Shown: positions 14,237 to 30,206 of the stretch, piece by piece
Numbering within the stretch: position 1 is the stretch's first letter
How the letters are laid out: the number at the start of each line of letters is the position of its first letter
DNA from: Bacteroidetes bacterium GWB2_32_14
GTDB lineage: Bacteria; Bacteroidota; Bacteroidia; Bacteroidales; UBA12077
Reading direction: 5' to 3'
Length of the DNA stretch: 64,000 nucleotides
Assembly: GCA_001768235.1 (NCBI GenBank)
Contig: MENK01000001.1
Coordinates: forward strand, 82,267 to 146,266
Program-made: the position numbers and the translations under genes
Notes under the pieces: model-generated
What the model was told of the DNA's origin: nothing
The model's input: only the letters and a program-made list of their open reading frames with translations
Database searches by the model: none

Positions 14237-14809
14237 TTGGAATCATTAAATAACGAGTTAATAATTGAAGGTATTCGTTCACAGAATCCTTATATACTCA
14301 ATCAAATATATACAAATTATTTCCCCGAAATCCGAAAATTTATTATTGATAATAATGGGACAATTCAGGATGCAAAAGATATTTTCCAGGAAGCAATAAT
14401 TATTATCTACAGGAAATTAAAGGTTGAGAACATTGTTATTACAAAATCGTTTAACTTATATCTGATAGGTGTTTGCAGGTATTTATGGTATCGCCAGGTT
14501 GCTTTTGTTAAAAACGAATCGGAACAACTGAATCATTTTGCGGAATATGAACGGTTGCCTGAATTTGAAATTGACGAAGTTGAAAAGAATGATAAGTACA
14601 AACTGTACCAGTTTCATTTTAAACAGTTGGGTATTGACTGCCAGAAAATTTTAGAAATGTTTTTAAATAATGTGCCAATAAAGGAGATAGCCAGGAAAAT
14701 GGGCAATACTTCTGAAAATTATATAAAAAGTCGAAAATACAAGTGTAAAGAACAATTGGTGAATAATATTAAAAACGATCCACGGTTTGCAAAGTATGAA
14801 AAGAAATAA
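14237..14809 (+). CDS. Second, divergent sigma-70/ECF-like sigma factor
   Basis: Region-2-like 'DAKDIFQEAIIIIYRKL', 'YLIGVCRYLWYRQ' and a region-4-like HTH 'PIKEIARKMGNTSENYIKSRKYKCKEQL'. TTG start. Confidence 0.7.
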   Translation: MESLNNELIIEGIRSQNPYILNQIYTNYFPEIRKFIIDNNGTIQDAKDIFQEAIIIIYRKLKVENIVITKSFNLYLIGVCRYLWYRQVAFVKNESEQLNHFAEYERLPEFEIDEVEKNDKYKLYQFHFKQLGIDCQKILEMFLNNVPIKEIARKMGNTSENYIKSRKYKCKEQLVNNIKNDPRFAKYEKK

Positions 14810-15533
14810 TTTCGATTTGACAGAAAGATATTTAATGGGCGATTTATCTGCGGAGGAAAGTACTGCTTTCGAGAAACTGATGGAAACAGATACTGAATTA
14901 AAAGCTGAATTAAATCTCGGGAAAGAGATTAATGAAGCAATTCTGGAATCGGATATTATGAATTTGCGCCATACCATGAGTGAAATCATGAATAAAAAAC
15001 AGAAGCCTGTATTCATTAAAAATCCATTTTTATGGCCGGCTACAGCTGCTGTTTTTATTCTGGCCATGATTATTAATACCTTATTTATAAGTTCACCCGC
15101 GGATAAGAATGATATTTTTAAAAAATATTACAAAGCATACCCGTCAGTATATAGCTCGAGAAGTTCTCAAAAACAATTGCGGGATCAACAATGCCTGAGA
15201 ATTGCTTTTGAACAATATGAAAAACCCGATTTTGAAAGTGCCGGTTTGTTGTTTAAAGAAATGTGGATCAAGGATTCAACAAATAATATGGCTAAATTTT
15301 ATTTATCTATAGCATTAATCGAGCAGAACAAAATGAATGAAGCCGAAAAGTATTTAAATGAACTAACTTTAAATAAACAACACTTATTTTATGAGCAATC
15401 GGTATGGTACCTGGCTTTGGTTTATTTAAATAATAATAAACCCGACGAAGCAGAAAGACTGTTAAATAAAATAATCTCGGAAAATTTATCGAATAAAACC
15501 CGGGCTAAGCAAATTCTGAAATCATTGAACTGA
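14796..15533 (+). CDS. Anti-sigma-like single-pass membrane protein with a C-terminal TPR domain (paralog A)
   Basis: Overlaps the sigma gene stop. N-terminal 'ERYLMGDLSAEESTAFEKLM' anti-sigma-type helix, TM 'FLWPATAAVFILAMIINTLFI', then TPR-like repeats ('WYLALVYLNNNKPDEA'). Confidence 0.65.
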   Translation: MKRNNFDLTERYLMGDLSAEESTAFEKLMETDTELKAELNLGKEINEAILESDIMNLRHTMSEIMNKKQKPVFIKNPFLWPATAAVFILAMIINTLFISSPADKNDIFKKYYKAYPSVYSSRSSQKQLRDQQCLRIAFEQYEKPDFESAGLLFKEMWIKDSTNNMAKFYLSIALIEQNKMNEAEKYLNELTLNKQHLFYEQSVWYLALVYLNNNKPDEAERLLNKIISENLSNKTRAKQILKSLN

Positions 15534-15537: not shown

Positions 15538-18357
15538 TTATTCTACAGGTTCAGGATAGTCATCCTTTTTTATTCTTGCCGAACGGTTTAACTTTTTTAC
15601 AATCAGAGTTACCAAAATTGCACCAAAAAGTACCCCGAACACGATGTAAATATACATGGCTGTATAGAGTGCATCGTTGTTCCCAATAACAACGTATCCC
15701 GACCAGAAATAGGGGTGAGCGTGTAATTGATCGGCATTCTGAAGAAACTCAATTTTTGCTTGTTGCAACGATTTTGATTTTGAAAATCCTTTTTTCAAAT
15801 CCTTGTAAAAAACAGTCATCAGTTTTACTCCCGAATTATCTTCGACCGACCATAAAGTCATTATTAACGATGGGCAACCTGCATATATGAATCCACGTGC
15901 TAAGCTCATAACTCCCTCGCCCTTTTGAAGGATTCCGGAACCGCTGTTGCACGAACTCAATACAGCCATCCTGCTTTTTAATTGCAAATTATATACTTCG
16001 TAGGTGTTTAAAAATCCGTCTTCGGTAGTATCGCTTGTTTGCGAAAAAGCCATTTTCGAATACATTGGGCTTTCATCGTTAAGTATGGTGTGCATTGCAA
16101 GGTGAAGAACATCAAATTCAGAGGCCTGTTGTTTAAATGTTTTTTCACTTGCATTTTCGTCTAAGAACAAGTTGCCCCCGATTAGTTTTGAAACGGTTTT
16201 TGCCTCTTCTTTTATTCCTTTTAACGGGTACAGTTTCTCCCTGTACTGTTGTCGTGTTAATATGACTCCCGGTTTCTGATTTTCCTGGTTATCGTATTTG
16301 GGTGCAAATGCAATAAGTTTTTTGGGAGCAATCTTCAGGTTATGTTCATTATCGAAAAGAATGCTTGCCGAATAGGTATAACTAATCGGGTTTTCAAACA
16401 AAAGATAATGCAATTTATTATAACTGATAGTGTTATAATTGCCCTCGTGGCAAAGTAAGGTTTCAAACGGGAGATAAGCCAGCTTTCCATCAGGGATAAT
16501 TATCAGGTGTTTTCCATTAATATAACCTGATACGGGAAGTATTAACTGTTTGTACAAATAGGATGATGATTTAATAAACCGGTTAAAATCTTCAAGATTA
16601 TGCTCCGAAAAGTTATTATCGGTTAAGCTGTTTATTTGCATTTCGAGATTTTCATCAAATCCGGGTTCTTTCTTTACACAAGTAAGCGAATAATCTGTTT
16701 TAGTTATTAAAAATATATAGACATTATCAGTACTTAAACAATATTCTATCACAGCATCTTTTTTCTTGATTCTTTCCTGTATATCTTTTATTTCAAACGA
16801 ATTATTCGAGAACTTTAACCTGAAATAATCAGGGTATTCCTTTTCAATCCTGGCAATAAGTTCGGCATGTTTTTCTTTTAATGTGAATATTTCTTTATTC
16901 CATGCAACAATAAACGTTTCATCAGGTTCTGCTTTTTTCCCCTCTTCATAAATCAGCTCTTCGAAAGTCCAGATACTTTTTTTCAATGAATTTTCGGTGT
17001 TCCGTATTTCCAGGGGTACATTTCCGGTTATCAATGCAGCATTGTTTTGTATTGCTTCGGAAAGTACGGCCGACTTTCCCGATTCAGAAAAACGAAATGC
17101 TTTTTCAAGATATTCTTTATTTCTTGTTGCTTCATATATCTTATAACTTGTTTCGAGTGTATGAATATATGTTTCGTGTTCGTTCTCGGCTAAGAAAAGC
17201 TTGCTCTGCTCACTCAAAAATCCGGAGCGGATTTCCCTGATAACATCTAATGCAAGTTCGCTGGCAGCTAGGCTGGCAGCCAGTGAATTGATGTTTGTTT
17301 TATCCTGTTCCCAGGTAAACTCTAAAGCAATGGATTTGTTTTTTAAGCTTCTTAATAACTGTGTTTTCGAAGAAACGGTACCGAGTTCAGGATTTGAACT
17401 ATAACCGGAGTCATTAAACTCCCTGGAGAGTGAGATTAATGATTTTTGAAAATAACTCAACGACTTTTGATATTCCCCGGTTTTTAAATAATACTCCCCG
17501 ATTTTAGAATATGCTCTTGCTGTTTCGGGATTCTTAATCCCTAAAATTTGTTTGTAAATCGATAATGCTTTTTCAAGGTTTTTTAACGATTCAGAGAGTT
17601 CGTTTTTGGAGTTTTGTAAAAACAGCCCATAGTTTAATTGATGTTGCGCATACCAGATGTTGTTTGTACCAAAATTTTTATGGATATTTTCGAGTGCTTT
17701 TAAATAATAAAATTCAGCTTTATCAGTGTTTCCTTCTTTTTCATACGAAAGGGCAAGGTTCTCGTATGTAGAATAAATAGTTTTATCTTCCTGTTTTAAT
17801 TTCAGACTATTTAAAAAACAAAGAATTGCCTTTTTGTTCTGATTAGTGTTTTTATATAAAATACCAAGATTATTATAAATTGATGCAATCAGCAACTTGT
17901 TTTTCATAGAGTCTGTATTTAGAATATTCAGTGATTCAGTATGATACAATTCTGCTTTTTCATAATCCTGTTGTCTTTCAAAAATTGTTGCCTTGTTTGC
18001 ATATACATATACAAGGCCTGGTGAATTGTGGCTTGATTTGTAAACTTGTTCGGCCTTGTTGTAACTCTGGATTGCTTCATCAAACCTGCCGTTCAATTTT
18101 TTTAGTATTCCAAAACTGATATAGGCCGATGCTAAATATTTTGTGTTGTTATTTTTTTCGAATATTTCAATAGATTTCCCGATATAGTAATAGGCACTAT
18201 CCAGGTTGCCCAGCTTACCGTATTCAATTCCTTTGGTTAAACTGAGAATCCCGTTTTCTAAAGTGTCAATACCAGACTGATTCTTGTAATTTGCTGAATT
18301 GCAGGCATTAATCAGGGTATGAGTTAGTATATAGATTATTAAAACGGATTTTTTCAT
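15538..18357 (-). CDS. Exported TPR-repeat CHAT-domain (caspase-like protease) protein with a C-terminal TM anchor
   Basis: Lipoprotein-like signal ('LINAC'), about 10 TPR-like repeats, and a CHAT catalytic-type region ('VLHLAMHT', 'MAVLSSCNSGSG', 'GFIYAGCPSLIMTLW'). Terminal hydrophobic helix followed by a basic tail. Confidence 0.85.
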   Translation of the reverse strand: MKKSVLIIYILTHTLINACNSANYKNQSGIDTLENGILSLTKGIEYGKLGNLDSAYYYIGKSIEIFEKNNNTKYLASAYISFGILKKLNGRFDEAIQSYNKAEQVYKSSHNSPGLVYVYANKATIFERQQDYEKAELYHTESLNILNTDSMKNKLLIASIYNNLGILYKNTNQNKKAILCFLNSLKLKQEDKTIYSTYENLALSYEKEGNTDKAEFYYLKALENIHKNFGTNNIWYAQHQLNYGLFLQNSKNELSESLKNLEKALSIYKQILGIKNPETARAYSKIGEYYLKTGEYQKSLSYFQKSLISLSREFNDSGYSSNPELGTVSSKTQLLRSLKNKSIALEFTWEQDKTNINSLAASLAASELALDVIREIRSGFLSEQSKLFLAENEHETYIHTLETSYKIYEATRNKEYLEKAFRFSESGKSAVLSEAIQNNAALITGNVPLEIRNTENSLKKSIWTFEELIYEEGKKAEPDETFIVAWNKEIFTLKEKHAELIARIEKEYPDYFRLKFSNNSFEIKDIQERIKKKDAVIEYCLSTDNVYIFLITKTDYSLTCVKKEPGFDENLEMQINSLTDNNFSEHNLEDFNRFIKSSSYLYKQLILPVSGYINGKHLIIIPDGKLAYLPFETLLCHEGNYNTISYNKLHYLLFENPISYTYSASILFDNEHNLKIAPKKLIAFAPKYDNQENQKPGVILTRQQYREKLYPLKGIKEEAKTVSKLIGGNLFLDENASEKTFKQQASEFDVLHLAMHTILNDESPMYSKMAFSQTSDTTEDGFLNTYEVYNLQLKSRMAVLSSCNSGSGILQKGEGVMSLARGFIYAGCPSLIMTLWSVEDNSGVKLMTVFYKDLKKGFSKSKSLQQAKIEFLQNADQLHAHPYFWSGYVVIGNNDALYTAMYIYIVFGVLFGAILVTLIVKKLNRSARIKKDDYPEPVE

Positions 18358-18577
18358 TTAATTCGTCACAAATTTTTTACAATATACTCTAAAATTGATT
18401 AAAAGTTAGTTTTTTTTGCATTTGTAAAACTCAGTAAATCAAAAGTATAAAAATTATTTTAAAAAAAGTTTAAAAATAATTTCAAAAACCGGGTTACCTT
18501 TTTTAAAAAAACTGCACATATAAGTGGAGAGAGAAACATAATTTTTATAAATAATAAAATCTAAAAAAACCAAAACC

Positions 18578-18736
18578 ATGAAAAGTTTAATTCACTTATT
18601 CGGGCAGGATGAACCCAAAAAATCATTCAAACAATTTGCACAACTCGGTACTAACGATATGCTGCTTGTAAAAGGCGGCGATGGTGATCCAATTGATGAT
18701 GATCTTTGGCCCCCGGTTCCACCGATTCAGAAATAA
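18578..18736 (+). CDS. Double-glycine-leader peptide 1, Cys-free acidic/Pro-rich core (52 aa); absent from the ORF track
   Basis: MKSLIHLFGQDEPKKSFKQFAQLGTNDMLLVKGG|DGDPIDDDLWPPVPPIQK. Hydrophobic residues sit at -4, -7, -12 and -15 relative to GG, as in C39-processed leaders. Confidence 0.7.
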   Translation: MKSLIHLFGQDEPKKSFKQFAQLGTNDMLLVKGGDGDPIDDDLWPPVPPIQK

Positions 18737-18767
18737 AGTTATTGATTTTATTAAAAGAACCAAAGCC

Positions 18768-18932
18768 ATGAAAAGTTTAATTCACTTATTCGGGCAGGAT
18801 GAACCCCAAAAATCATTTAAACAATTTGCACAACTTAGTACTAACGATATGTTGCTTGTAAAAGGCGGCGATGGAGAGCCACAAGACGATCTTTGGCCTC
18901 CAATTCCTCCCTTACCACCAACAACAAAATAA
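18768..18932 (+). CDS. Double-glycine-leader peptide 2, tandem paralog (54 aa)
   Basis: MKSLIHLFGQDEPQKSFKQFAQLSTNDMLLVKGG|DGEPQDDLWPPIPPLPPTTK. The leader DNA is almost identical to peptide 1. The ORF-track start at 18681 is read-through of the spacer. Confidence 0.7.
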   Translation: MKSLIHLFGQDEPQKSFKQFAQLSTNDMLLVKGGDGEPQDDLWPPIPPLPPTTK

Positions 18933-18994: not shown

Positions 18995-19747
18995 ATGAAT
19001 AGTTACAACCCTATTGTAGATAAATATATTTACGGGGAACTCGATACCGACGAAATGGTAGCTTTTGAGCAGTTGCTGGCAAACGATTCCCGTGTAAAAA
19101 AGGAGTATCATTTATACAACGATATAAACCATGCCATACTCGAGAAGGATGTTATGGTACTCCGCGGTACTCTCGATGGAATATATAATGAAATTGCCGA
19201 GCCAAAAGAAAAATATATTTCATCGGTTTTCTCTAAACGCAAGATGTATTACGCTGCCGCTTCGCTTGCCATGTTAATGGCTACAGGTGGTATTGTTAAC
19301 CAGTTAGCAAAAAACGACATGGGTAACGAAGCAATTTACAGCAAATATTTTACTCCTTACGAAGTAGCTGTTACTTATCGTTCAGGGAATGAAGAGGCTG
19401 ACAAACTGCTTTTATACGCGCTCCAGAAATACGAAGATGAGGAATATGATAAAGCTGTTGTTCTTTTCGAACAGGTACTCGAAAAACGAAATAATGATAT
19501 GGCTGCTAATTTATATTCAGGTATTTCTCTTATGGAAACTGAAAAATACCAAAAAGCAACACATTCGTTTCAGGCAATTATTGCACAAAATGATAACTTA
19601 TTTACTGAACAGGCAAAATGGTACCTGGCAATGTGTTACATTAAAACAAACAGTGTTTCTAAAGCAGAGAATATTTTAAATGATTTAATTGTTAAAAACA
19701 GCTATTATAAAGATATAGCCAAAAAAGTACTTAAAGAACTGGATTAA
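18995..19747 (+). CDS. Anti-sigma-like single-pass membrane TPR protein (paralog B of 14796..15533), with no adjacent sigma gene
   Basis: Same layout and alignable motifs as paralog A ('DKYIYGELDTDEMVAFEQLL'; TM 'YYAAASLAMLMATGGIV'; 'WYLAMCYIKTNSVSKAE'). Confidence 0.65.
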   Translation: MNSYNPIVDKYIYGELDTDEMVAFEQLLANDSRVKKEYHLYNDINHAILEKDVMVLRGTLDGIYNEIAEPKEKYISSVFSKRKMYYAAASLAMLMATGGIVNQLAKNDMGNEAIYSKYFTPYEVAVTYRSGNEEADKLLLYALQKYEDEEYDKAVVLFEQVLEKRNNDMAANLYSGISLMETEKYQKATHSFQAIIAQNDNLFTEQAKWYLAMCYIKTNSVSKAENILNDLIVKNSYYKDIAKKVLKELD

Positions 19748-19765: not shown

Positions 19766-20488
19766 ATGAAACCACAATCTGGCACCATTAGTCGGGATGA
19801 CATTAAAGAAAGTAATGTTTCCGATAGCACCAGGAGTAGTTTTCTTTCGCATATATCGCATGGTATAAGAACGCCTTTAAACTCCATCATGGGTTTTTCC
19901 AATTTATTATTAGACAGGCAGCTTGTTGATGGTAAGCAAATTGAATATGCAAGGCGCATAGTTTCCAGCAGTAATGTATTGTTAAATTTTGTAGAGAACC
20001 TGATCGATTTGTCGCAATTCGATTCAAATAAATACAAGGTTACCCAACAGCAAGTTGATTTAAATTCATTGCTATGGAAAATAGCCGAAGATTTTATTAT
20101 TCAGAAAATTGATAAGGATTATTCTGAAATTGAACTTTCGGTGAATATCCATTCAGGAATCGAAGATTTTTTAATAACTACCGATTATGTATTGCTGAAA
20201 AAATCGTTAAACAGGCTTGTTGAGTTAGTTGCTGCTATTTATAAAACCGGGAAAATCGAGTTGGGATATTGCATTGAAAACAACCATGTACTTAAAATAT
20301 ATGTTCGTGAAAATAGCGACGAATATTTTAAACAGCAGGGCAACCTGGAGTTTAGGGATGATAACGGGGAAGATATGTTTAATGATTTCAATTTCGAAGT
20401 GCTTGTTCGTTCGATAGATCTTATTGGCGGGCGGGTTTGTACTGACTCAATTATGAATGAATATTATATCGAATTGCCAATAAATTGA
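19766..20488 (+). CDS. Soluble histidine-kinase-like protein: intact HisKA H-box, degenerate ATPase domain
   Basis: 'FLSHISHGIRTPLNSIMGFSNLL' is a good H-box. I could find no N-box (NxxxNAxK), DxGxG or GxGxGL in the C-terminal half. No TM helix. Confidence 0.65.
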   Translation: MKPQSGTISRDDIKESNVSDSTRSSFLSHISHGIRTPLNSIMGFSNLLLDRQLVDGKQIEYARRIVSSSNVLLNFVENLIDLSQFDSNKYKVTQQQVDLNSLLWKIAEDFIIQKIDKDYSEIELSVNIHSGIEDFLITTDYVLLKKSLNRLVELVAAIYKTGKIELGYCIENNHVLKIYVRENSDEYFKQQGNLEFRDDNGEDMFNDFNFEVLVRSIDLIGGRVCTDSIMNEYYIELPIN

Positions 20489-20547: not shown

Positions 20548-20901
20548 ATGACAACATTTAATATATACTTACCAACAAAAAACGGGAAAATAGGAGTAGA
20601 GCTTAAACATATTCTTTACTTCGAATCCCTGGGCGACACCAATTTTATGGTGTTAAACAATGATGAAAAAATCGAGTTGTTAATGGCCGTTGATGAAATT
20701 GAGCAACTGCTGTGTTACCGTGGATTTTTCAGGTTTACACAAAACTACCTTGTAAACCTTAAAGCTGTTCAGCTTATATTCCCTGGCGATGCGTCGAAAG
20801 TGGTTCTCGAAAATGGTAAAGAAATTTTTGCACCGCAAAGCCGCCGTGAAGAACTTTTTAGAGAACTCGAGAAAGTGTACCAGGTTCACGCGACTATATA
20901 A
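20548..20901 (+). CDS. Stand-alone LytTR DNA-binding domain protein (no receiver domain)
   Basis: 117 aa. LytTR-like 'ILYFESLGDTNFMV...FFRFTQNYLVNLKAV'. The usual H-[RK]-S triad is replaced by T-Q-N. Confidence 0.7.
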   Translation: MTTFNIYLPTKNGKIGVELKHILYFESLGDTNFMVLNNDEKIELLMAVDEIEQLLCYRGFFRFTQNYLVNLKAVQLIFPGDASKVVLENGKEIFAPQSRREELFRELEKVYQVHATI

Positions 20902-21006: not shown

Positions 21007-21366
21007 ATGATTGATTTAAATGGAAAAATATACATCCAATCCGAAGATGAAAAAATAATCCAAATTGAAGAAATAAAAAATATTGTTTATTTAGAAGCCG
21101 ACAATAGAAAAACGAAAGTTTATTGCTTCAACGGGAATCAGTATTTAATTAATAAATGCCTGAGTTACATAGAAGAAAGGATTACAAATAAAAATTTCTT
21201 TAAGATCCATAAATCATTTATCATTAATGTTGATTATTTAAAAAGTGTTAACTACAAAGGTGAAAAAAATGTAGTTCTTGAAAATGATATTAAAATTCAA
21301 ATAGCTTGTCGAAAATATCCTGAATTCAAGAGATTTTTGAAAGAGAAATTTTCGTTTTTTCAGTAA
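21007..21366 (+). CDS. Stand-alone LytTR DNA-binding domain protein (no receiver domain)
   Basis: 119 aa. Canonical 'IVYLEADNRKTKVY...FFKIHKSFIINVDYLKSV'. Confidence 0.8.
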   Translation: MIDLNGKIYIQSEDEKIIQIEEIKNIVYLEADNRKTKVYCFNGNQYLINKCLSYIEERITNKNFFKIHKSFIINVDYLKSVNYKGEKNVVLENDIKIQIACRKYPEFKRFLKEKFSFFQ

Positions 21367-21667
21367 ATGGTACTGTAATAGATTCAGACTAAATATATTC
21401 CCTTATTCGTTTTAACGATTGTTATAAAAAAGTTAACAAGTTTTAGTCAAAAATTTAATTGCGAAAATGCAAACTTTAGTTACGATAAAGTAATAAAATG
21501 CAACGATCATGTATTTGAACGGTTAGAACTAAATAATGAGGATTTTGATATAAGAATATTATGTCTAATTTAGGTTGTTTGAGTTCATTAAAAAAGCTCG
21601 GGTAGTTTATCGGTAAAGCAGGTATGAAAGAAAACTATGAAAATTAATTTAAAATAAAAGGCACGTT

Positions 21668-23287
21668 TTGAAAGAATCATTGATTTATATACTGAAAAGA
21701 ATTCTGAAAGAGAACAGGATTAAAGTTGACGAAAAAGAGCTGGAGTTTCAACTATTAAGCCATCCGTCGTACCCCAGCTTACATTCAGTTACGGGTGTTT
21801 TAGATCATTTTGCAATTAGTAACCTCGCGTTGGAAGTTCCTAAAAATATTGAAACTTTAAACCAATTACCCAGGTTTTTTCTTGCTTATATTAAAGATAT
21901 AAATAACGATGATTTAGTTTTGGTTACGAATAAAGATTCTAAAATATGTTTAATATATAATGAAAAAAGAACGGAAACTTTATCGACAGATAAATTTTTA
22001 AATGCATGGACAGGAGTAATTGTTGGAGTTGAAAAAGATAACGAAGTTGTTCCAAAAACGAACCCATTAGATTTAACCTTATTTACTTCATTTTTAACGA
22101 TAGTTTTATTAATTATCTTGTTTTTCTCTTTTAAACCGGATTTATTTCAGTCCCTGCATTTCTTATTATCATTTGCCGGATTAGCAATTAGTATAGTTAT
22201 TGTAAAACACGAGCTGGGTTTTCATTCTAAAATCGCAGATAAATTTTGTTCTGGAAATATTGATAAAATAAATTGTGATGATGTATTGAAATCGAAAGCA
22301 GCAAATTTTTTCGGAGTTTTTAAATTAAGTGATGTTGGAATTATTTATTTTTTATCCCTAACAGTATCCTGGCTATTATTATCAATGAATAAAGCAGGAT
22401 ATGATTCTTTAATTGTTATTTCAGTTTTAGCTATACCTTTTACTTTTTATTCAATAATTTATCAATATTTTGTTGTAAAAAAATGGTGTTTACTATGTTT
22501 AAGTGTAGTTTTAATATTGTGGTTGCAGGCAACTTCTCTTTTTATTGTTGATATAGATATTACCAGTTTATCTTTTACCTATAATAGTTTACTATTAGTT
22601 GCTTTTAGCTTCTTGCTCACAACCGTTTTTTGGCAATTTGTATTGCCTAAAATGAAAAAAGAAAAGGAATTAAGTATATTAAAAATTGAACATTACAAGT
22701 TTAAACGAAACTACAGCATATTTAATGCGCTTATATCAAGGTATGTTCAAATGAATACAGCAATCAATGGTACTAATGAGATTGTATTTGGGGATATGAA
22801 TAACCTTTTTAAAATTACAATTATTACGAACCCATTGTGCAGTTTTTGTAAAGGAGCACACGAACTGGTCGAAAACCTGTTAAAAAGCGGGAATAAGAAT
22901 ATTCAAATAACCATAAGATTTAATGTAAACCTGAATCGTGATGCTACTGATAATAAAATAGCCCTGAGATTATTAGAACTATACAATGTATCTGGTATAG
23001 AACAATGTTTAAACGCGATGCATGATATTTATGGTAAACTGTTACCCAAGAATTGGCTGGAAAAATGGGGCGAAGCCGGTAACCCCCAATATATTGAAAT
23101 ATTAAGGGCAGAAAAAGAGTGGTGTAAGCAAAACAATATCAACTTCACTCCTGAAATACTAATAAACGGGAGACCACTTCCAAAAGAATATGAAAGAAAT
23201 GATTTATTGTACTTTGTAGAAGATGTAGTTGAAAATGAGCAACAAAAAATTGAAAGCTCAATTTCAGAATTAGAATATACATCATAA
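21668..23287 (+). CDS. Three-domain membrane protein: catalytic-Cys-less C39-like domain, VKOR domain, thioredoxin/DsbA-like domain
   Basis: The N-terminal ~125 aa resemble a C39 fold, but 'SHPSYPSL' sits where the exporter has 'MDCGPSCL'. VKOR loop Cys pair 'CSGNIDKINC' and membrane CxxC 'WCLLC'. C-terminal 'NPLCSFCKGAH' CxxC. TTG start. Confidence 0.7.
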   Translation: MKESLIYILKRILKENRIKVDEKELEFQLLSHPSYPSLHSVTGVLDHFAISNLALEVPKNIETLNQLPRFFLAYIKDINNDDLVLVTNKDSKICLIYNEKRTETLSTDKFLNAWTGVIVGVEKDNEVVPKTNPLDLTLFTSFLTIVLLIILFFSFKPDLFQSLHFLLSFAGLAISIVIVKHELGFHSKIADKFCSGNIDKINCDDVLKSKAANFFGVFKLSDVGIIYFLSLTVSWLLLSMNKAGYDSLIVISVLAIPFTFYSIIYQYFVVKKWCLLCLSVVLILWLQATSLFIVDIDITSLSFTYNSLLLVAFSFLLTTVFWQFVLPKMKKEKELSILKIEHYKFKRNYSIFNALISRYVQMNTAINGTNEIVFGDMNNLFKITIITNPLCSFCKGAHELVENLLKSGNKNIQITIRFNVNLNRDATDNKIALRLLELYNVSGIEQCLNAMHDIYGKLLPKNWLEKWGEAGNPQYIEILRAEKEWCKQNNINFTPEILINGRPLPKEYERNDLLYFVEDVVENEQQKIESSISELEYTS

Positions 23288-23303
23288 AAGACCTTTTTCC
23301 CGG

Positions 23304-23401
23304 GGGGAAGGTTTATAAAGAAATTCTATTGCGAAGAATAAACCGAAACTTGACGGTTTAAAAAAGTTCAAGATTTTCTTTAACTAAAAATTCTTAATAA
23401 A
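23304..23401 (+). promoter_or_regulatory. Cassette upstream element, copy 1 (conserved promoter/operator-like repeat)
   Basis: Contains GCGAAGAATAAACCGAAACTTGACGG (23331-23356) and TTCAAG (23367-23372). TTGACGG lies 52 nt before the ATG. Confidence 0.55.
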
Positions 23402-23572
23402 ATGAAAGATTTAAAAAATTTAAAAGGTGCTAAAGTTCTTGGCAAAACAGAACAAAAAGCTATTAAGGGCGGAGTAATAGTTATTTGTGAAGGATGTCCG
23501 CCAATATCCGATTGTTGTGTAAATAACATTTGTGGCAAAATAGGTATAGGTGGAAAATGTTATGCCATTTAG
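23402..23572 (+). CDS. GG-leader Cys-rich bacteriocin-like precursor A (56 aa, 6 Cys in the core); absent from the ORF track
   Basis: MKDLKNLKGAKVLGKTEQKAIKGG|VIVICEGCPPISDCCVNNICGKIGIGGKCYAI. Confidence 0.75.
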   Translation: MKDLKNLKGAKVLGKTEQKAIKGGVIVICEGCPPISDCCVNNICGKIGIGGKCYAI

Positions 23573-23588
23573 TTTTATTTTATTCAGG

Positions 23589-23631
23589 TTAACTAGGAAT
23601 TATCTGGATTTTTCAGATAACTTCTAGTTAA
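23589..23631 (+). terminator. Hairpin after precursor A
   Basis: TTAACTAGGAATTATCTG / CAGATAACTTCTAGTTAA, 16 of 18 positions complementary. Confidence 0.5.
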
Positions 23632-23809
23632 TTATTTAGGTGGAATCCACAGTTTGCCTGACTTTAAAAAAGCAGTTGAAAATCAGGGTTTTATGCACGT
23701 GACATGCAGTTGTAACAGCTAAATGTTATTTTGAAGTGCTATGTAATATTTGCGATTTTTTTATTCTGCATACAAGTCAGAAATTGAATGCATACCACGA
23801 AATAATTTA

Positions 23810-23908
23810 CTCAAGGAAGATTTAAAAAGAAATTCATTCGCGAAGAATAAACCGAAACTTGACGGTTTTAAAATGCTCAAGATATTTTAACCTAAAATTT
23901 CTAATAAA
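23810..23908 (+). promoter_or_regulatory. Cassette upstream element, copy 2
   Basis: Differs from copy 3 at about five positions in 99 nt by my count. TTGACGG at 23859-23865 (50 nt before the ATG); CTCAAG at 23876-23881. Confidence 0.6.
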
Positions 23909-24055
23909 ATGAAAGATTTAAAGAAAATGAAAGGTGTTAAGATTCTTAGCAAAAAGGAGCAAAAAGCTATTAAAGGCGGATATGCTTGCAGAGAACCTGA
24001 AATGTGGTGCCCTCCCGGATCGATTTGTGTTGATGGGCTTTGTCGTCCAGTATAA
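23909..24055 (+). CDS. GG-leader Cys-rich bacteriocin-like precursor B (48 aa, 4 Cys)
   Basis: MKDLKKMKGVKILSKKEQKAIKGG|YACREPEMWCPPGSICVDGLCRPV (C-x6-C-x5-C-x4-C). Confidence 0.75.
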   Translation: MKDLKKMKGVKILSKKEQKAIKGGYACREPEMWCPPGSICVDGLCRPV

Positions 24056-24081
24056 TAGCAGATACGATTATTAACTAATTA

Positions 24082-24115
24082 AGAAGTTGTCTGAAAAAAT
24101 ATTCTGGCAACTTCT
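24082..24115 (+). terminator. Hairpin after precursor B
   Basis: AGAAGTTG ... CAACTTCT stem. Confidence 0.4.
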
Positions 24116-24198
24116 CTTAAAAATCATTACCTCCCCCTTGATATTTCCCCGGGGGAATAAAAAAGTTTAACATCAGTAATTGAATAAAAACTATTTTT

Positions 24199-24297
24199 CT
24201 AAAGGAAGATTTAAAAAGAAATTCTCTCGCGAAGAATAAACCGAAACTTGACGGTTTTAAAATGCTCAAGATATTTTAACCTAAAATTCTTAATAAA
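24199..24297 (+). promoter_or_regulatory. Cassette upstream element, copy 3
   Basis: GCGAAGAATAAACCGAAACTTGACGG at 24229-24254 and CTCAAG at 24265-24270. TTGACGG lies 50 nt before the ATG. Confidence 0.6.
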
Positions 24298-24453
24298 ATG
24301 AAAGATTTAAAAAAATTAAAAGGTGCTAAAATTCTTAGCAAAAAGGAGCAAATCTCAATTAAAGGTGGAAAAATTTATTGTGGTGATGGAAAACCTTGTC
24401 CTGTTGGTACAATATGTAATGGGACATGGTGTGAACCATATATTGAGGCATAG
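24298..24453 (+). CDS. GG-leader Cys-rich bacteriocin-like precursor C (51 aa, 4 Cys)
   Basis: MKDLKKLKGAKILSKKEQISIKGG|KIYCGDGKPCPVGTICNGTWCEPYIEA (C-x5-C-x5-C-x4-C). Confidence 0.75.
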   Translation: MKDLKKLKGAKILSKKEQISIKGGKIYCGDGKPCPVGTICNGTWCEPYIEA

Positions 24454-24471
24454 TATCAAATTTTAAATATC

Positions 24472-24503
24472 GAGAGAAAATCTTTGGTTTTCTCTCATTT
24501 TTA
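24472..24503 (+). terminator. Hairpin plus T-tract after precursor C
   Basis: GAGAGAAAA / TTTTCTCTC stem followed by ATTTTT. The sequence is related to the hairpin after precursor D. Confidence 0.6.
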
Positions 24504-24604
24504 ATTAAATAAGTTTAGATCGCTTTAAGTTAGAAATAATTAAGAAAGTTGTAAAATACTTACAATAAGTTGTGTTTAATTTTTAACTCAATGATAGCAT
24601 ATAT

Positions 24605-25540
24605 ATGGATATAATTAATAGCATCATAGATTTTGTTAAGGATAACTGGACTACAATATTTAGTGGTATTGGTACAACTATTTTAATTGGAATTCTCGGA
24701 TATATTGGTAAGCGTATGAAAAAAGGAAAAAAAATATCCCAAGAAGAAAAAAAAGTTATAAATCAAAGTGTGAATACTGGAGATAACTCAAAAGTAATTC
24801 AAAGTGCTGAAAACATCATAATTGACAATTCAGATGTTAAAATAAATAATGATTCAAAATCAACAGCCACAGAGCAAACAATTATTGTGCAAGCTGGTAG
24901 AGATGCTATATTGAATGTTAAACAAAGTCCGCCTGACATAAAATTAGTACGAGTAACAGTTGAAGATGATGAAACACAAAGAGGGCTGAAGCAAAAGCTG
25001 AATGTAATAATGAAAAATAATGGAGATAAAAGTGTATTTCTTTTAAGTGGTCATCTAGAGGTTATTGGTTGTGAAGACATTGTAAATCCAAATCATTTTG
25101 GAATGCATTATAAACTTAGTTTTGCTGATTGGAATTATGATGTTGATATTAATAGTGATAACCCTAGCTTTAAGGGACAACATATAATTGAACCAGATGA
25201 AGTAATTAACTTTAATGTCATAGTCGGTAGAAATGAAGGAGGCCTTAATTTATCAGTCTATAAATGTTTATTAAAGTTTAAATTTGATGAACACAAGGAT
25301 TTAGAATGTGGTCCATTTTTCTTGCTTATTTCTGGACCAACTGTTTGGGATGGAGGTTTTCAAGCCTGTGGACCAACTCCTGAACAATGGGGCAGAGCGC
25401 AAGTAGATAACATCAAACGTTTAGACAGTATAGGATATGATTATCGTCATCAAATTCATCCAGATTCAAGAAAATACCTTGAAGAAATAGACCCACATAT
25501 CTTTGAAAAACAAAAAACTAAACACAACACGCGGTCATAA
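24605..25540 (+). CDS. Hypothetical N-terminally membrane-anchored protein (311 aa) interrupting the cassette array
   Basis: Long clean ORF. TM helix 'IFSGIGTTILIGILGYIG', then a low-complexity Asn/Ser/Asp linker and a ~200-aa globular domain. I do not recognise any family motif. Confidence 0.55.
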   Translation: MDIINSIIDFVKDNWTTIFSGIGTTILIGILGYIGKRMKKGKKISQEEKKVINQSVNTGDNSKVIQSAENIIIDNSDVKINNDSKSTATEQTIIVQAGRDAILNVKQSPPDIKLVRVTVEDDETQRGLKQKLNVIMKNNGDKSVFLLSGHLEVIGCEDIVNPNHFGMHYKLSFADWNYDVDINSDNPSFKGQHIIEPDEVINFNVIVGRNEGGLNLSVYKCLLKFKFDEHKDLECGPFFLLISGPTVWDGGFQACGPTPEQWGRAQVDNIKRLDSIGYDYRHQIHPDSRKYLEEIDPHIFEKQKTKHNTRS

Positions 25541-25660
25541 AACATGCCGGTTTCAGTCGGTTTTCGAGCGTTTCGTCCCGCCTCGTAGGTTTGTAACGGG
25601 GGGTACAGACGCAGCCCCGCAATCCGGCACGTTTCATACCGCCAACGTTAGAGTATAGCA
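25541..25660. other. GC-rich, non-coding, structure-prone island of unknown nature
   Basis: Composition jumps sharply relative to the AT-rich surroundings. Complementary segments: ATGCCGG (25544-25550) / CCGGCA (25624-29), and CGGGG...CCCCG around 25597-25619. No ORF. Confidence 0.3.
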
Positions 25661-25697
25661 TGACGGGAAATTAAACTTTACAAAAATGACTGAAGCT

Positions 25698-25750
25698 TTG
25701 ACGGTCAACTAAATGCTCAAGGCAAATTATTAATTAAATAGTAACTTATT
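25698..25750 (+). promoter_or_regulatory. Cassette upstream element, truncated copy 4 (core only)
   Basis: TTGACGG at 25698-25704 (53 nt before the ATG) and CTCAAG at 25716-25721. The distal GCGAAGAATAAACCGAAAC part is absent. Confidence 0.5.
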
Positions 25751-25924
25751 ATGAAAGAATTAAAAAATTTAAAAGGTGCTAAAGTTCTTAGCAAAAAAGA
25801 GCAAATCTCAATTAAAGGCGGATTAGAAATTTGTGATATTTTTGGGCATGATTGCCATGAAGGTTATATTTGCAAATTAGTGAATTCAACCACGGGATGG
25901 TGCATTCCTGTAATCGAAGATTAA
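25751..25924 (+). CDS. GG-leader Cys-rich bacteriocin-like precursor D (57 aa, 4 Cys)
   Basis: MKELKNLKGAKVLSKKEQISIKGG|LEICDIFGHDCHEGYICKLVNSTTGWCIPVIED. Confidence 0.75.
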   Translation: MKELKNLKGAKVLSKKEQISIKGGLEICDIFGHDCHEGYICKLVNSTTGWCIPVIED

Positions 25925-25934
25925 TGTCTTGAAT

Positions 25935-25970
25935 AATGAGAGGGAACTTTTTGGTTTTCTCTCATTATTT
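25935..25970 (+). terminator. Hairpin after precursor D
   Basis: AATGAGAG / CTCTCATT stem. Shares 'tttggttttctctcatt' with the hairpin after precursor C. Confidence 0.55.
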
Positions 25971-26175
25971 AAAATTTAGAATTTAGAATAACTCATTTCT
26001 GCCCAGGATTTTGCCATGGGGCTAATCATTAAATAAAATAGTTTTAAATACAACAGTATCAATACAGAAGCAAATCGATTATAAAAAATCTTTGTAAATA
26101 AATGCAATTTATTTTCTGAATTATTAAAATTAATCCTAAGTCTGTTCAAGAGTTTTTAATATCTTTAAACCAAAA

Positions 26176-28392
26176 ATGCCTTTCCCCTTTTACCAACAGT
26201 TAGATGCCATGGATTGCGGCCCTTCGTGCCTGCGCATGATTGCGAAACATTATGGCAAGTCGTTTTCCTTACAAACCTTGCGCGATAAAAGCTATATTAC
26301 CCGCGAGGGTGTTTCTATGCTGGGTATTAGCGATGCAGCAGAAGCAATTGGATTTCGCAGCATGGGTGTTCGAATTACTTTCGAGCAGTTACTAAACGAA
26401 GCACCAATGCCTTGTATAGCACATTGGAAGCAAAATCACTTTGTGGTGGTTTATAAAATCAAACAAATTCTCCCGTCCCCCTTTAGAAAAGGAGGAGTAT
26501 TTGTACATGTGGCCGATCCGGCACGGGGATTGATAAAATTTACCAAGGAAGAGTTTATGTCGGGTTGGGCTAACACGAAAGAAGCGGGCGAAGATAAAGG
26601 TTTGTGCCTATTGCTGGAAACAACTCCCGACTTTTACAAGTCCGATAATGAAAAATTAAACAAATCGGGTTTCAAATTTTTGTTTTCGTATTTACGACCG
26701 TATAAAAAACTGATTATTCAGCTGGTATTAGGTTTATTGCTGGGTAGTTTATTGCAACTTATTTTTCCATTTTTAACCCAGAGCATTGTCGATAAAGGTA
26801 TCAATAACCAGGATTTGAGCTTTGTAACACTCATTATTATTGCACAACTGGTACTTATTTTTTCGCGAACTATAGTTGAATTTATTCGGAGCTGGATTTT
26901 ATTGCACCTGGGTACACGAATCAATATTTCGTTAATATCCGATTTTCTGATTAAATTAATGAAGTTACCGGTTTCCTTTTTCGATACTAAAATGATTGGT
27001 GACCTTATTCAACGAATTGGCGACCATAAACGTATCGAAAACTTTTTAACATCATCTACATTAAATATCCTGTTCTCATTTGTTAACCTGATCATATTTG
27101 GCATTGTTCTTCTTACATACAGTGTAAACATATTTCTTATTTTCCTTATAGGAAGTACATTATACACGCTTTGGATTTACCTGTTCATGAAAAAACGACG
27201 CGATTTGGATAATCGGAAGTTTGCCCAACTTTCGAGTAATCAAAGCAATGTAATTCAGTTGATTACCGGAATGCAGGAAATAAAACTGAACAACTGTGAA
27301 AAGCAAAAACGATGGGAGTGGGAGAGTATCCAGGCCAAGTTGTTCAAAGTAAATATGGATAGCTTATCATTGAGTCAGTACCAGCAGGCTGGCGGGGTTT
27401 TTATTAACGAAATAAAAAACATTGCAATCACGTTTATTGCAGCCAAATCAGTTATCGACGGACAAATGACTCTGGGTATGATGCTGGCAGTGCAATACAT
27501 CATTGGCCAGTTAAACAGCCCGATTAATCAAATGATTGGATTCTTGCAGGCTACCCAGGATGCGAAAATAAGCCTGGAACGCTTAGGTGAGATTCATCAA
27601 CGCGACAATGAAGAGTCGGACGAAACGCCTAAAATAAGTATTCTGCCTGAACACCGTGATTTAAATATTGATTTAATATCATTCCAGTACGAGGGGCCTC
27701 ATTCGCCTTTTGTGCTCGAAAATGTTGAATTAAATATCCCCGAGAAAAAAATTACAGCTGTAGTAGGTACCAGCGGTAGTGGTAAAACCACACTAATCAA
27801 GCTTTTACTTGGATTTTACGAGCCACAGAAAGGCAAAATAAAACTGGGTGATATTTACCTGAACAATATCAGTAATCGTATGTGGCGCGATAAGTGTGGT
27901 GTTGTTATGCAGGATGGATTTATTTTCTCCGATTCAATAGCAAATAATATTTCTGTTTCAGACGAGTTTCCCGATCGCGAAAAATTACTAAATGCCGTAA
28001 AGGTGGCCAATATACAGGATTTTATTGAATCTCTGCCTTTGGGCTATAATACAAAAATCGGACAGAATGGTGTTGGATTGAGCCAGGGGCAGAAACAACG
28101 AATACTCATTGCCCGTGCGGTGTATAAAAACCCTGAATTTATTTTCCTTGATGAGGCTACCAATGCACTCGACGCAAATAATGAACGTGTTATCATGGAA
28201 AACCTCGATCAGTTTTTTAAAGGGAAAACAGTTGTAGTTGTTGCACACCGATTGAGTACTGTAAAAAATGCCGACCAGATTGTAGTTTTGGAGCAAGGGA
28301 AAATAGTAGAAAGAGGTACCCATGCAGAGTTAACCAGGAAGAAAGGTGCTTATTACGAGTTGGTGAGGAATCAGTTGGAGTTAGGGAATTAA
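26176..28392 (+). CDS. Peptidase-C39-domain ABC transporter (double-glycine leader cleavage and export)
   Basis: N-terminal C39 with a candidate catalytic set (Q in 'YQQLD', C in 'MDCGPSC', H in 'QNHFVVV', D in 'VADPA'). Six-TM ABC membrane domain. Walker A 'GTSGSGKTT', signature 'LSQGQKQR', Walker B 'IFLDEATNALD'. Confidence 0.9.
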   Translation: MPFPFYQQLDAMDCGPSCLRMIAKHYGKSFSLQTLRDKSYITREGVSMLGISDAAEAIGFRSMGVRITFEQLLNEAPMPCIAHWKQNHFVVVYKIKQILPSPFRKGGVFVHVADPARGLIKFTKEEFMSGWANTKEAGEDKGLCLLLETTPDFYKSDNEKLNKSGFKFLFSYLRPYKKLIIQLVLGLLLGSLLQLIFPFLTQSIVDKGINNQDLSFVTLIIIAQLVLIFSRTIVEFIRSWILLHLGTRINISLISDFLIKLMKLPVSFFDTKMIGDLIQRIGDHKRIENFLTSSTLNILFSFVNLIIFGIVLLTYSVNIFLIFLIGSTLYTLWIYLFMKKRRDLDNRKFAQLSSNQSNVIQLITGMQEIKLNNCEKQKRWEWESIQAKLFKVNMDSLSLSQYQQAGGVFINEIKNIAITFIAAKSVIDGQMTLGMMLAVQYIIGQLNSPINQMIGFLQATQDAKISLERLGEIHQRDNEESDETPKISILPEHRDLNIDLISFQYEGPHSPFVLENVELNIPEKKITAVVGTSGSGKTTLIKLLLGFYEPQKGKIKLGDIYLNNISNRMWRDKCGVVMQDGFIFSDSIANNISVSDEFPDREKLLNAVKVANIQDFIESLPLGYNTKIGQNGVGLSQGQKQRILIARAVYKNPEFIFLDEATNALDANNERVIMENLDQFFKGKTVVVVAHRLSTVKNADQIVVLEQGKIVERGTHAELTRKKGAYYELVRNQLELGN

Positions 28393-28490: not shown

Positions 28491-28862
28491 ATGGAGTTTG
28501 GGTTTAAACAGTTAAAAGTTTACCAAAAGGCATATCAGCTCGCAAAAGAGATATTTGAAATCAGCAAATCATTTCCTATAGAAGAGAAGTATTCTTTAAC
28601 AGATCAGATAAGAAGATCATCAAGAGCTGTTTGTGCTAATATTGCGGAAGCATATCGAAAAAGACGATATCCTAAACACTTTACATGTAAAATTACTGAC
28701 TCAGACGCTGAAGCTAGTGAGACTGTTGTTTGGCTTAATTTTGCAATGGATTCTAATTACATTTCTAAAGAAATTCAAATGCGATTAGAAAATGAATATG
28801 AAGAAGTTGAAAGAATGTTAGGTTCAATGGCCGATCATCCTGAAAAATTTTTACCAAAATAA
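28491..28862 (+). CDS. Four-helix-bundle protein ('23S rRNA intervening-sequence protein' family)
   Basis: 'FKQLKVYQKAYQLAKEIFEISKSFP..EKYSLTDQIRRSSRAVCANIAEAY' is the typical family signature. Wedged between the exporter and HlyD genes. Confidence 0.8.
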   Translation: MEFGFKQLKVYQKAYQLAKEIFEISKSFPIEEKYSLTDQIRRSSRAVCANIAEAYRKRRYPKHFTCKITDSDAEASETVVWLNFAMDSNYISKEIQMRLENEYEEVERMLGSMADHPEKFLPK

Positions 28863-28910: not shown

Positions 28911-30206
28911 ATGGAAGAACAAAATAAAATTGAACTTCGCTCGAATGATGTACAAGAAATTCTCAGCCGTCCACCAAAATGGATTGTGCGATGGGGTATT
29001 ACAATAATTCTGATTGTTGTTGTTATCTTGATTGCAGGGAGTTGGTTTTTTAAATATCCCGACATTATTACTGCAAAAATAGTATTGACTACAGAAAACC
29101 CACCATCTCCCGTAGTTGCTAAAACATCGGGCAAAATTCAGAACTTGTTTGTTACCGATAAGCAGGAAGTAAAAAAGAATCAGGTATTGGCAGTTATCGA
29201 GAATCCCGCAAATTTCAATGATATAAGTATAATCATTGAAAAATTAAACAACTTTAATTCAGATTCTTATTCCAATGAAATTTTTTCAGGGAGTTATAAT
29301 CTTGGCACTATTCAATCCTATTATGCTGATTTTATCAGAAATCTTGATGAATACCAAAAACTTGTTCAGATGGATTATCACCAGAAAAAAATCAATCTCT
29401 TGAAAAAAGAAATTATACAATACACAAAATACCTCGCAAATTTAAAAGTGCAAAACAACCTGCAAAAAAGAGAATACGAATTAATAGTGAACCAATTCTA
29501 TCGTGATTCAACTTTACACGATCAGCAGTTAATATCTGAGGCTGAATTTGAGAAATCGAAGTCATCCTTATTGTCAAAACAGTTTAGTCTTGAACAATCA
29601 AACATTGCACTTACCAATACCGAAATTCAGGTTCAAAATATTGAGCAGAGCATAGCAGAACTTGAGCTGCAGGAAGAAAAACAATTGTCGGATAAAAAGC
29701 TGCTAATCAAACAGTCGTGTGAAAATTTAATTGCAGCTATCGATTCCTGGAAATACCAGTATGTTTTAATTGCATCAACCGATGGTAAAGTTACATTTAA
29801 CAAGTTCTGGAATGAGAATCAATCGGTAAAATCAGGAGAAACAGTACTTACAATAATTCCGGATAATGAGGGTGAAATAATTGGTAAGGTTCAATTGTCG
29901 TTTCAGGGTGCCGGGAAAGTAAAAGAAGGACAACAGGTAAATATTCGATTCGATAATTATCCATATATGGAATTTGGAATGGTTAAAGGAGTGGTAAAAT
30001 CAATATCGCAAGTTCCCGATAATGATTATTATACTGCCGAAATACAGTTGCCCGGCGGATTAATTACATTTTACAATGAAAAACTCGATTTTAAGCAGGA
30101 AATGCAAGGTACAGCAGAGATTGTAACTGAAGATTTCCGGTTATTGGAACGTATTGTAAGGCCATTGCGGTACGTTTTAAATAAAAATACTAAGTTTGGG
30201 GGTTAA
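28911..30206 (+). CDS. HlyD-family membrane fusion/accessory protein for the peptide exporter
   Basis: N-terminal TM helix, long coiled-coil middle and a C-terminal beta-barrel-like region, immediately downstream of the C39 ABC transporter. Confidence 0.8.
   Translation: MEEQNKIELRSNDVQEILSRPPKWIVRWGITIILIVVVILIAGSWFFKYPDIITAKIVLTTENPPSPVVAKTSGKIQNLFVTDKQEVKKNQVLAVIENPANFNDISIIIEKLNNFNSDSYSNEIFSGSYNLGTIQSYYADFIRNLDEYQKLVQMDYHQKKINLLKKEIIQYTKYLANLKVQNNLQKREYELIVNQFYRDSTLHDQQLISEAEFEKSKSSLLSKQFSLEQSNIALTNTEIQVQNIEQSIAELELQEEKQLSDKKLLIKQSCENLIAAIDSWKYQYVLIASTDGKVTFNKFWNENQSVKSGETVLTIIPDNEGEIIGKVQLSFQGAGKVKEGQQVNIRFDNYPYMEFGMVKGVVKSISQVPDNDYYTAEIQLPGGLITFYNEKLDFKQEMQGTAEIVTEDFRLLERIVRPLRYVLNKNTKFGG

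Follow-up and report, generated by a model that had tools for sequence, protein, structure and literature searches.

Pseudoknots in the mRNA leaders of T4 gene 32 and Escherichia coli rpsO (encoding S15) act as translational operators. Another compact leader RNA, preQ1-I (RF00522), is the smallest H-type pseudoknot riboswitch. In Bacteroidetes, bacteroidetocin clusters encode Cys-containing peptides with double-glycine (GG) leaders, a thiol oxidoreductase, and an ATP-binding cassette (ABC) exporter with a C39 peptidase, according to the text of Coyne et al. (2019, PMC6671954); that text describes proteins and genes, and a term search of it found no leader RNA element. Here, we analyzed a 64,000-nt stretch of Bacteroidetes bacterium GWB2_32_14 (contig MENK01000001.1, positions 82,267 to 146,266; referred to as the window, whose own numbering is used throughout). 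It holds a bacteroidetocin-type locus, which matches the described clusters in locus type and differs from them in the leader family of its peptides. A repeated element precedes each of the four peptide genes of the locus, and its TTGACGG...CTCAAG core is most likely an H-type RNA pseudoknot, not a promoter. The pseudoknot consists of two stems (S1 and S2) connected by loops L1, L2, and L3.

The element resembles the gene 32 and rpsO operators in being a compact H-type pseudoknot positioned at a defined distance from the start codon within a 5' leader and resembles gene 32 further in the unstructured, A/U-rich tract that follows the knot and includes the initiation region. Whereas those two are single-gene autoregulatory sites with known protein partners, the present element occurs in multiple copies, before every member of a secreted-peptide family, in Bacteroidia that initiate translation independently of Shine-Dalgarno (SD) pairing. 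With preQ1-I, it shares a length of approximately 34 nt, the H-type fold, an A-rich 3' loop, and the 5' leader location. However, its S2 of 5 to 7 bp abuts S1 without an L2 or a pocket, it lies in a bacteriocin-like peptide context and not beside queuosine genes, sequestration of the start site was not found, and no Rfam family matched it. Searches against Rfam 15 gave no match at an E value of ≤10 over positions 23200 to 26300, none at an E value of ≤1 on any element in 16 related loci, and, at the gathering score, a signal recognition particle (SRP) RNA as the only match in the entire window.

The first-pass annotation of the window had described a promoter/operator module of approximately 99 nt in front of each peptide cassette. 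The repeat itself was borne out: there are three near-identical copies of approximately 99 nt and one diverged copy, and the family was also recovered by repeat finding and alignment. GCGAAGAATAAACCGAAACTTGACGG occurs exactly three times in the window (positions 23331, 23840, and 24229; 0 expected from shuffles), and TTGACGG-N9-12-YTCAAG occurs four times (positions 23350, 23859, 24248, and 25698; 0.01 expected) and nowhere else in the 64 kb. Between module copies 2 (23810-23908) and 3 (24199-24297), 5 of 99 positions differ. TTGACGG starts 52, 50, 50, and 53 nt before the ATG of peptide genes 1, 2, 3, and 4, respectively. These four open reading frames (ORFs) encode peptides of 48 to 57 aa in which the leader, MK(D/E)LK.LKGAK.L.K.EQ..IKGG, is conserved and the Cys-rich core is variable. 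A dispersed genomic repeat, of the repetitive extragenic palindrome (REP) or miniature inverted-repeat transposable element (MITE) kind, was considered and rejected, as all four copies in the 64 kb precede GG-peptide genes.

The pseudoknot spans approximately 35 nt (Table 1). S1 has 5 to 7 bp and is followed by L1 (AAA, AAG, or AAU); S2 also has 5 to 7 bp, and L3 is an A-rich stretch, UUAAAUGU, mostly of 7 to 9 nt. The 5' arm of S2 sits in the loop of S1, which is the H-type topology, and S2 ends in an invariant GA/UC junction stacked straight onto S1, the S1 3' arm following the S2 5' arm without an intervening nucleotide (L2 = 0). The core noted in the first-pass annotation thus corresponds to the S2 5' arm, the S1 3' arm, L3, and the S2 3' arm. 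The consensus in the window is AAACCG/CGGTTT for S1, CTTGA/TCAAG for S2, AAA for L1, and UAAAAUGY for L3. The stereochemistry of H-type pseudoknots allows an L1 of 2 to 3 nt across an S2 of 5 to 7 bp, an L3 of 7 to 9 nt across an S1 of 5 to 7 bp, and an L2 of 0. By these textbook loop-span rules, the observed loop lengths (with an L1 of 3 nt in 70 of 73 instances) are sterically compatible with the formation of both helices at once. The minimum free energy (MFE) fold of copy 2 recovers the S1 hairpin. Copy 4 had been regarded as truncated to a bare TTGACGG-N11-CTCAAG core. The remainder of the module is indeed gone, but the complete pseudoknot is retained; relative to copies 1 to 3, its S1 carries two compensatory changes and one G.U pair, and its S2 is longer.

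An optional further feature, P0, is a pyrimidine/purine palindrome located just 5' of S1 in approximately 20 instances, including window copies 1 to 3. Its cells are paired in 78.6% (55 to 57% in slid controls), U.G is frequent, and two pairs covary. This support is modest, and P0 is retained as a candidate that may represent either a hairpin in the RNA or a palindrome in the DNA overlapping a promoter.

The pairing was evaluated in relatives of the peptides, which came from 7 loci found in a genome scan and 26 found in a metagenome scan. Two carriers, Labilibaculum euxinus A4 (L003) and Ancylomarina salipaludis SHSM-M15 (L004), are cultured. A covariance model built with S1 pairs only (S2 was not modeled as pairs) was searched against the window and these 33 loci. 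It returned 93 matches, 92 of them real; all lie on the gene strand except one chance match (E = 0.35). The distinct instances numbered 76 and came from 6 Bacteroidales/Marinifilaceae genomes and 26 metagenome contigs. With 43 instances aligned by MAFFT on sequence only, 88.6% of the cells pair, in contrast to 31 to 46% with slid partners; double-sided changes are present in 12 of 13 pairs, with 103 compensatory cells, and 0 of 500 shuffles reached the covariation score. For the 76 distinct model matches, 89.9% of the cells pair (27 to 49% in slid controls across analyses), with 181 compensatory cells, and S2, the stem not modeled as pairs, is paired in 96.9%. In the 30 instances outside the training set, S2 pairs in 171 of 180 cells (95%). 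Additionally, the best upstream pseudoknot score for 79 GG-peptide genes had a median of 28 (shuffles: median, 17; 90th percentile, 23), and 47 genes share the same architecture at the same distance.

The stems take many forms, with 36 distinct arm pairs for S1 and 38 for S2. Examples are AAACCG/CGGTTT, AAACTG/CAGTTT, AGACAC/GTGTCT, GACAG/CTGTC, AGTAC/GTACT, and GGCTG/CAGCT for S1 and CCTTGA/TCAAGG, CCATGA/TCATGG, CCTAA/TTAGG, CCCGA/TCGGG, TCTCGA/TCGAGA, GCCTGA/TCAGGC, and CTTAGA/TCTAAG for S2. While the stems vary freely, the two junction pairs are near-invariant (G-C in 72 and A-U in 70 of 76), and L1 and L3 are conserved. On the gene strand, the core stems contain 49 G.U but only 13 A.C combinations, which places the constraint on the sense strand in single-stranded form. 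The alignments show both helices to be kept by compensatory substitutions, on the gene strand only, across dozens of Bacteroidales/Marinifilaceae loci.

The position of the knot relative to the downstream gene is equally regular. The proposal of one cis element per peptide cassette, confined to this locus and not dispersed, held up: the window has no copies other than the four, and of the 76 distinct matches elsewhere, 73 precede an ORF of 30 aa or longer, the products of nearly all these ORFs being peptides of the same leader family. In 71 of these 73, the ATG lies 19 to 29 nt downstream of the knot (mode, 26 to 28 nt); the other two distances are 14 and 70 nt. The spacers (75 instances) are 87% A+U and 2% G, and the spacer together with the first 18 coding nucleotides is essentially unstructured (MFE, −1.1 kcal/mol, versus −5.9 kcal/mol for downstream segments of the same length). 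Upstream, the arrangement is loose. The distance to the ATG is fixed and that to upstream features varies, and a positional scan of related loci found nothing conserved beyond approximately 20 nt upstream of the knot. In five related loci (L001, L003, L006, L016, and L019), only 10 to 20 nt separate the stop codon of the upstream VKOR gene from S1 of the first knot; a separate intergenic promoter is therefore not a general part of the element. The simplest reading of this arrangement would be cotranscription with the VKOR gene. An upstream ORF starting from the AUG within L3 was also considered and was rejected, since AUG is present in only approximately 60% of the instances, with AAG, AUA, ACG, or AUU elsewhere.

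Bacteroidia do without SD pairing when they initiate translation, and both mRNA structure and the nucleotides upstream tune initiation (PMC6847099 and PMC7797042). On balance, and with a little better than even confidence, we favor the explanation that the element is an mRNA-leader pseudoknot of approximately 35 nt before each GG-leader gene that acts in cis on translation initiation or mRNA stability. The mechanism that we infer from sequence comparison is as follows. The element would work in cis on the mRNA and not on DNA. A rigid fold ending at about −27 would lie at the edge of, or just outside, the 30S footprint, and such a folded 5' boundary could keep or present a single-stranded landing pad, giving a high rate of translation initiation at each peptide cistron. 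Contact with the ribosome platform, with the ribosomal protein bS1, or with another bound factor is a possible route. Within a VKOR-peptide-exporter transcript, the fold might additionally shield the 5' ends of the individual peptide cistrons.

Several points weigh against this explanation. An effect on translation or stability is read entirely from the position of the element and the nature of the spacer, and a transcription start upstream of S1, in the window or elsewhere, is a prediction. The hairpins that follow peptide genes 1 to 3 suggest that copies 2 to 4 may need their own nearby promoters. The covariation indicates that both helices matter but not that they form simultaneously, so that a pseudoknot and two alternative hairpins are inseparable on this evidence. 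Because a pairing scan and, later, a model with S1 pairs were used to pick the instances, the proportions of paired S1 cells (127 of 145 for the S1 core in the instances outside training) are somewhat inflated; the cleanest test is S2 in these 30 new instances, together with the enrichment over shuffles. Finally, a protein or ligand could equally well be what recognizes the invariant GA/UC junction and the conserved loops.

The last point leads to the possibility, which we regard as minor but substantial, that the knot is a translational operator on which a trans-acting repressor or activator protein nucleates before spreading onto, or occluding, the A/U tract and the start codon, as happens at the pseudoknots of the T4 gene 32 and rpsO leaders. 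Invariant junction pairs and conserved L1 and L3 amid freely varying stems form the pattern expected of a recognition surface, and the architecture, a pseudoknot followed by approximately 26 nt of unstructured A/U and then the AUG, would suit such spreading. However, no conserved candidate gene for an RNA-binding protein was found in the loci. The genes that recur are limited to those of the VKOR fusion, the C39-ABC exporter, and HlyD, and the bAvd-like/intervening-sequence protein (IVP)-like gene of the window (28491-28862) is missing from L001, where it was not found at the corresponding junction. Binding of the knot by a protein is itself a prediction.

A bolder form of the favored explanation is possible, and we hold it only tentatively. 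The pseudoknot might be a dedicated ribosome-recruiting element of SD-independent Bacteroidia, resembling an internal ribosome entry site or binding bS1 and docked at about −27, or else a signal-responsive element of a new class of small pseudoknot sensors, in either case driving or gating high-level translation of bacteriocin precursors, and it might belong with DUF805b to a wider, so far unrecognized set of leader pseudoknots particular to secreted-peptide genes. DUF805b (RF02914, clan CL00115) is a 35-nt candidate cis-regulatory motif of unknown function and has the same size as the present element. A match to it (L008:2181-2216, plus strand; 48.2 bits, against a gathering score of 35.6) lies 20 nt upstream of a different GG-leader ORF (2237-2425) in the peptide array of this sister locus, which also holds two copies of the present pseudoknot; the encoded peptide is MRKKINLLGGSNKELVKREMLKVRGG followed by CGCGC.... 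DUF805b may thus be an analogous small leader motif for secreted peptides. The two motifs nevertheless differ: the DUF805b hairpin has a 12-nt loop and cannot be threaded onto the L2 = 0 architecture, and no cross-matches were obtained between the Rfam DUF805 and DUF805b models and the present pseudoknots or between the present covariance model and L008:2181. DUF805 does not appear in the text of the Weinberg 2017 paper.

Somewhat less probable is a role in RNA processing or stability, in which the knot would mark and protect the 5' ends of the peptide cistrons after endonucleolytic cleavage of a VKOR-peptide-exporter transcript. The location of the element between cistrons, directly after upstream stop codons, fits such a role, as does the hairpin after each peptide gene, with which the small cistrons are bracketed by structures. 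If this were true, far more precursor mRNA than enzyme or exporter mRNA would be present. A purely 5'-protective structure would not, however, require the fixed distance to the downstream ATG that is observed alongside a variable upstream distance.

We consider it very unlikely that the core is a DNA promoter/operator, as proposed in the first-pass annotation, with TTG as a Bacteroidetes −33 element, the downstream TATTTT as a −7 element, and LytTR or extracytoplasmic function (ECF) regulators binding the repeats of the module; for the core, this proposal is already largely refuted. There are grounds for it in the window. TTGACG-16/18-GATATT/TATTTT in copies 2 and 3 is a 9/12 match to a sigma-70-like promoter, two LytTR genes and an ECF sigma gene lie nearby, and the hairpin after each peptide gene, with a terminator-like site at 24472-24496, makes separate promoters plausible. 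In the homologs, however, the supposed −33 TTG is not conserved. Its position reads CATGA, CCTAA, CCCGA, CTCGA, CCTGA, CTTAGA, or CCAGA, always with the matched change in the TCAAG partner, so that it covaries with its pairing partner. The −7 consensus, TAnnTTTG, is enriched at no fixed offset from the element: between −100 and +70, no single offset has a match of at least 5/6 in more than 7 of 73 instances, and neither of the two offsets that reached the reporting threshold has a 6/6 match. Sites of the sigma-70 type are not more frequent than in shuffles (19 versus 14.2 ± 5.1). The strand-asymmetric pairing is unexpected for the recognition of duplex DNA, and the element can begin 10 nt past an upstream stop codon. 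The distal part of window copies 2 and 3 may hold a promoter, as hairpins follow genes 1 to 3, but this is not a conserved property of the element.

The operator part of the proposal fared no better. The direct repeat perceived between the distal and proximal parts of the module amounts to a 16/26 match to the proximal CTCAAGATATTTTAACC... segment, a level reached by 31% of module shuffles, and the distal segment is not conserved in related loci. A phasing of 21 nt is typical of LytTR operators, whereas the proposed repeats are spaced 65 nt apart. The sequence said to be related upstream of the exporter gene (26144-26171) is present, 32 nt before the exporter ATG, but neither relatedness nor a shared regulon found support: only 15 to 16 of 28 positions match the proximal segment, GTTCAAGA occurs five times in the window, and the covariance model gave no match there at an E value of ≤1. 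Upstream of the VKOR gene, by contrast with the module, three boxes with an ACGA core lie in exact 21-nt phasing (21461-64, 21482-85, and 21503-06, within 21455-21510). The orthologous intergenic region of L002 has the same arrangement of boxes (at 1772, 1793, and 1814), and the HisKA and LytTR genes are also kept there. These boxes are a better candidate than the 99-nt module for a LytTR operator or the promoter of the locus, and transcriptional control of the locus more likely sits elsewhere than in the module.

Least likely of these explanations is a riboswitch similar in size to preQ1-I that responds to a small-molecule signal controlling bacteriocin production. The compact H-type fold of the element, its A-rich 3' loop and conserved loop nucleotides, and its place in a 5' leader would suit such a switch, and the lack of any matching Rfam family would make it an unassigned class, but the long abutting helices with an L2 of 0 leave no obvious pocket, the gene context is a single peptide family and not metabolic or transport genes, and no expression platform is recognizable, since the duplex energy between the knot and the initiation region (−5.07 kcal/mol, versus −5.02 kcal/mol for shuffles) gives no alternative pairing and a scan of the window found no terminator-like site between knot and ATG.

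Table 1. Leader elements, peptide genes, and neighboring genes of the peptide locus (positions in the window)
Feature	Position	Strand	Details
Pseudoknot, copy 1	23340-23372	+	S1 23340-23345/23354-23359; L1 AAA 23346-23348; S2 23349-23353/23368-23372; L3 23360-23367; ends 29 nt before ATG at 23402; covariance-model match 23333-23383, 42.5 bits, E = 1.3e-05
Pseudoknot, copy 2	23849-23881	+	S1 AAACCG 23849-23854/CGGTTT 23863-23868; L1 AAA 23855-23857; S2 CTTGA 23858-23862/TCAAG 23877-23881; L3 TAAAATGC 23869-23876; ends 27 nt before ATG at 23909; 45.2 bits, E = 3.6e-06
Pseudoknot, copy 3	24238-24270	+	S1 24238-24243/24252-24257; L1 24244-24246; S2 24247-24251/24266-24270; L3 24258-24265; ends 27 nt before ATG at 24298; 45.2 bits
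Pseudoknot, copy 4	25687-25723	+	S1 TGACTG 25687-25692/CGGTCA 25702-25707; S2 GCTTTGA 25695-25701/TCAAGGC 25717-25723; L3 ACTAAATGC 25708-25716; ATG at 25751; 46.7 bits, E = 1.8e-06, top-scoring match in the window
P0 (candidate), copy 1	23323-23339	+	ATTCT-ATTGCGA-AGAAT; abuts S1
P0 (candidate), copy 2	23832-23848	+	ATTCATTCGCGAAGAAT
P0 (candidate), copy 3	24221-24237	+	ATTCT-CTCGCGA-AGAAT
A/U-rich spacer from knot to ATG, copy 1	23373-23401	+	
A/U-rich spacer, copy 2	23882-23908	+	
A/U-rich spacer, copy 3	24271-24297	+	
A/U-rich spacer, copy 4	25724-25750	+	
GG-leader peptide gene 1	23402-23572	+	MKDLKNLKGAKVLGKTEQKAIKGG and Cys-rich core
GG-leader peptide gene 2	23909-24055	+	
GG-leader peptide gene 3	24298-24453	+	
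GG-leader peptide gene 4	25751-25924	+	
C39-like/VKOR/thioredoxin fusion gene	21668-23287	+	directly upstream of peptide array
Peptidase-C39 ABC exporter	26176-28392	+	for GG-leader peptides
HlyD-family membrane fusion protein	28911-30206	+	
Stand-alone LytTR protein	20548-20901		
Stand-alone LytTR protein	21007-21366		
HisKA-only protein	19766-20488		
ECF sigma factor	13001-13702		

The location of the VKOR fusion directly upstream of the peptide array is a synteny shared by 16 or more related loci. The bAvd-like gene, situated between those for the ABC exporter and HlyD, encodes a four-helix-bundle protein related to those of 23S rRNA intervening sequences. The histidine-kinase-like protein of the locus has a HisKA domain, no detectable HATPase_c, and no membrane sensor region; next to two receiver-less LytTR proteins, it makes up an unusual signaling set, which is conserved in L002.

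Within the array, hairpins 3' of peptide genes 3 and 4 (24472-24496 and 25945-25969) have TTTGGTTTTCTCTCATT in common, and the former scores as an intrinsic terminator; longer hairpins lie 3' of genes 1 and 2 (about 23589-23633 and 24081-24115). Peptide genes 3 and 4 are separated by an insertion (24605-25660), which takes the place of the distal part of module copy 4 and spares the pseudoknot. It comprises a 311-aa ORF, which has a hydrophobic segment at its N terminus and matched nothing in Pfam or NCBIfam, and a 120-nt GC-rich patch (25541-25660; 45 to 47% GC, against approximately 28% in its surroundings) that folds no better than shuffles (z = −0.74).

A second peptide family is encoded by a tandem pair (18578-18736 and 18769-18932), with the leader MKSLIHLFGQDEP.KSFKQFAQL..NDMLLVKGG and a Pro/Asp-rich core. 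A direct repeat of 91% identity (18562-18700 and 18752-18890) shows that the duplicated unit takes in a short upstream region. Neither a related pseudoknot element nor an Rfam match was found at this pair (18578-18932). It is flanked by the ECF sigma gene, by genes for two TPR proteins that are maybe anti-sigma-like (14787-15533 and 18995-19747), and by a gene for a 939-aa TPR-CHAT protein (15538-18357, minus strand).

The SRP RNA of the window is of the small Bacteroidales type (RF04183; 58632-58739, minus strand; 97.4 bits), and because of this and the closest relatives, the window was placed in the Bacteroidales sensu lato. A flavobacterial locus from a Tenacibaculum metagenome-assembled genome (L007, 3566-4186) encodes peptides with GG-like leaders and has no pseudoknot, its first gene being preceded only by a simple ATGTGA-TTTT-TCACAT hairpin, which suggests that the motif may not extend beyond Bacteroidales sensu lato.

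In summary, what appeared to be a −35/−10 promoter with operator repeats is reinterpreted here as an RNA structure supported by covariation. From the comparisons above, it is a structured RNA motif without a match in Rfam 15, represented by 76 distinct examples and tied to one family of exported, Cys-rich GG-leader peptides. The literature searched contained nothing that linked a pseudoknot or other RNA motif to Bacteroidetes bacteriocin genes and no description of posttranscriptional control of bacteriocin precursors in Bacteroidia. How very high translation rates are achieved on mRNAs that lack an SD sequence is still being worked out, and a conserved fold that keeps its spacing to the start codon offers a directly testable handle on this question. 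For genome mining, the motif provides a compact marker for unannotated small peptide genes of the same class.

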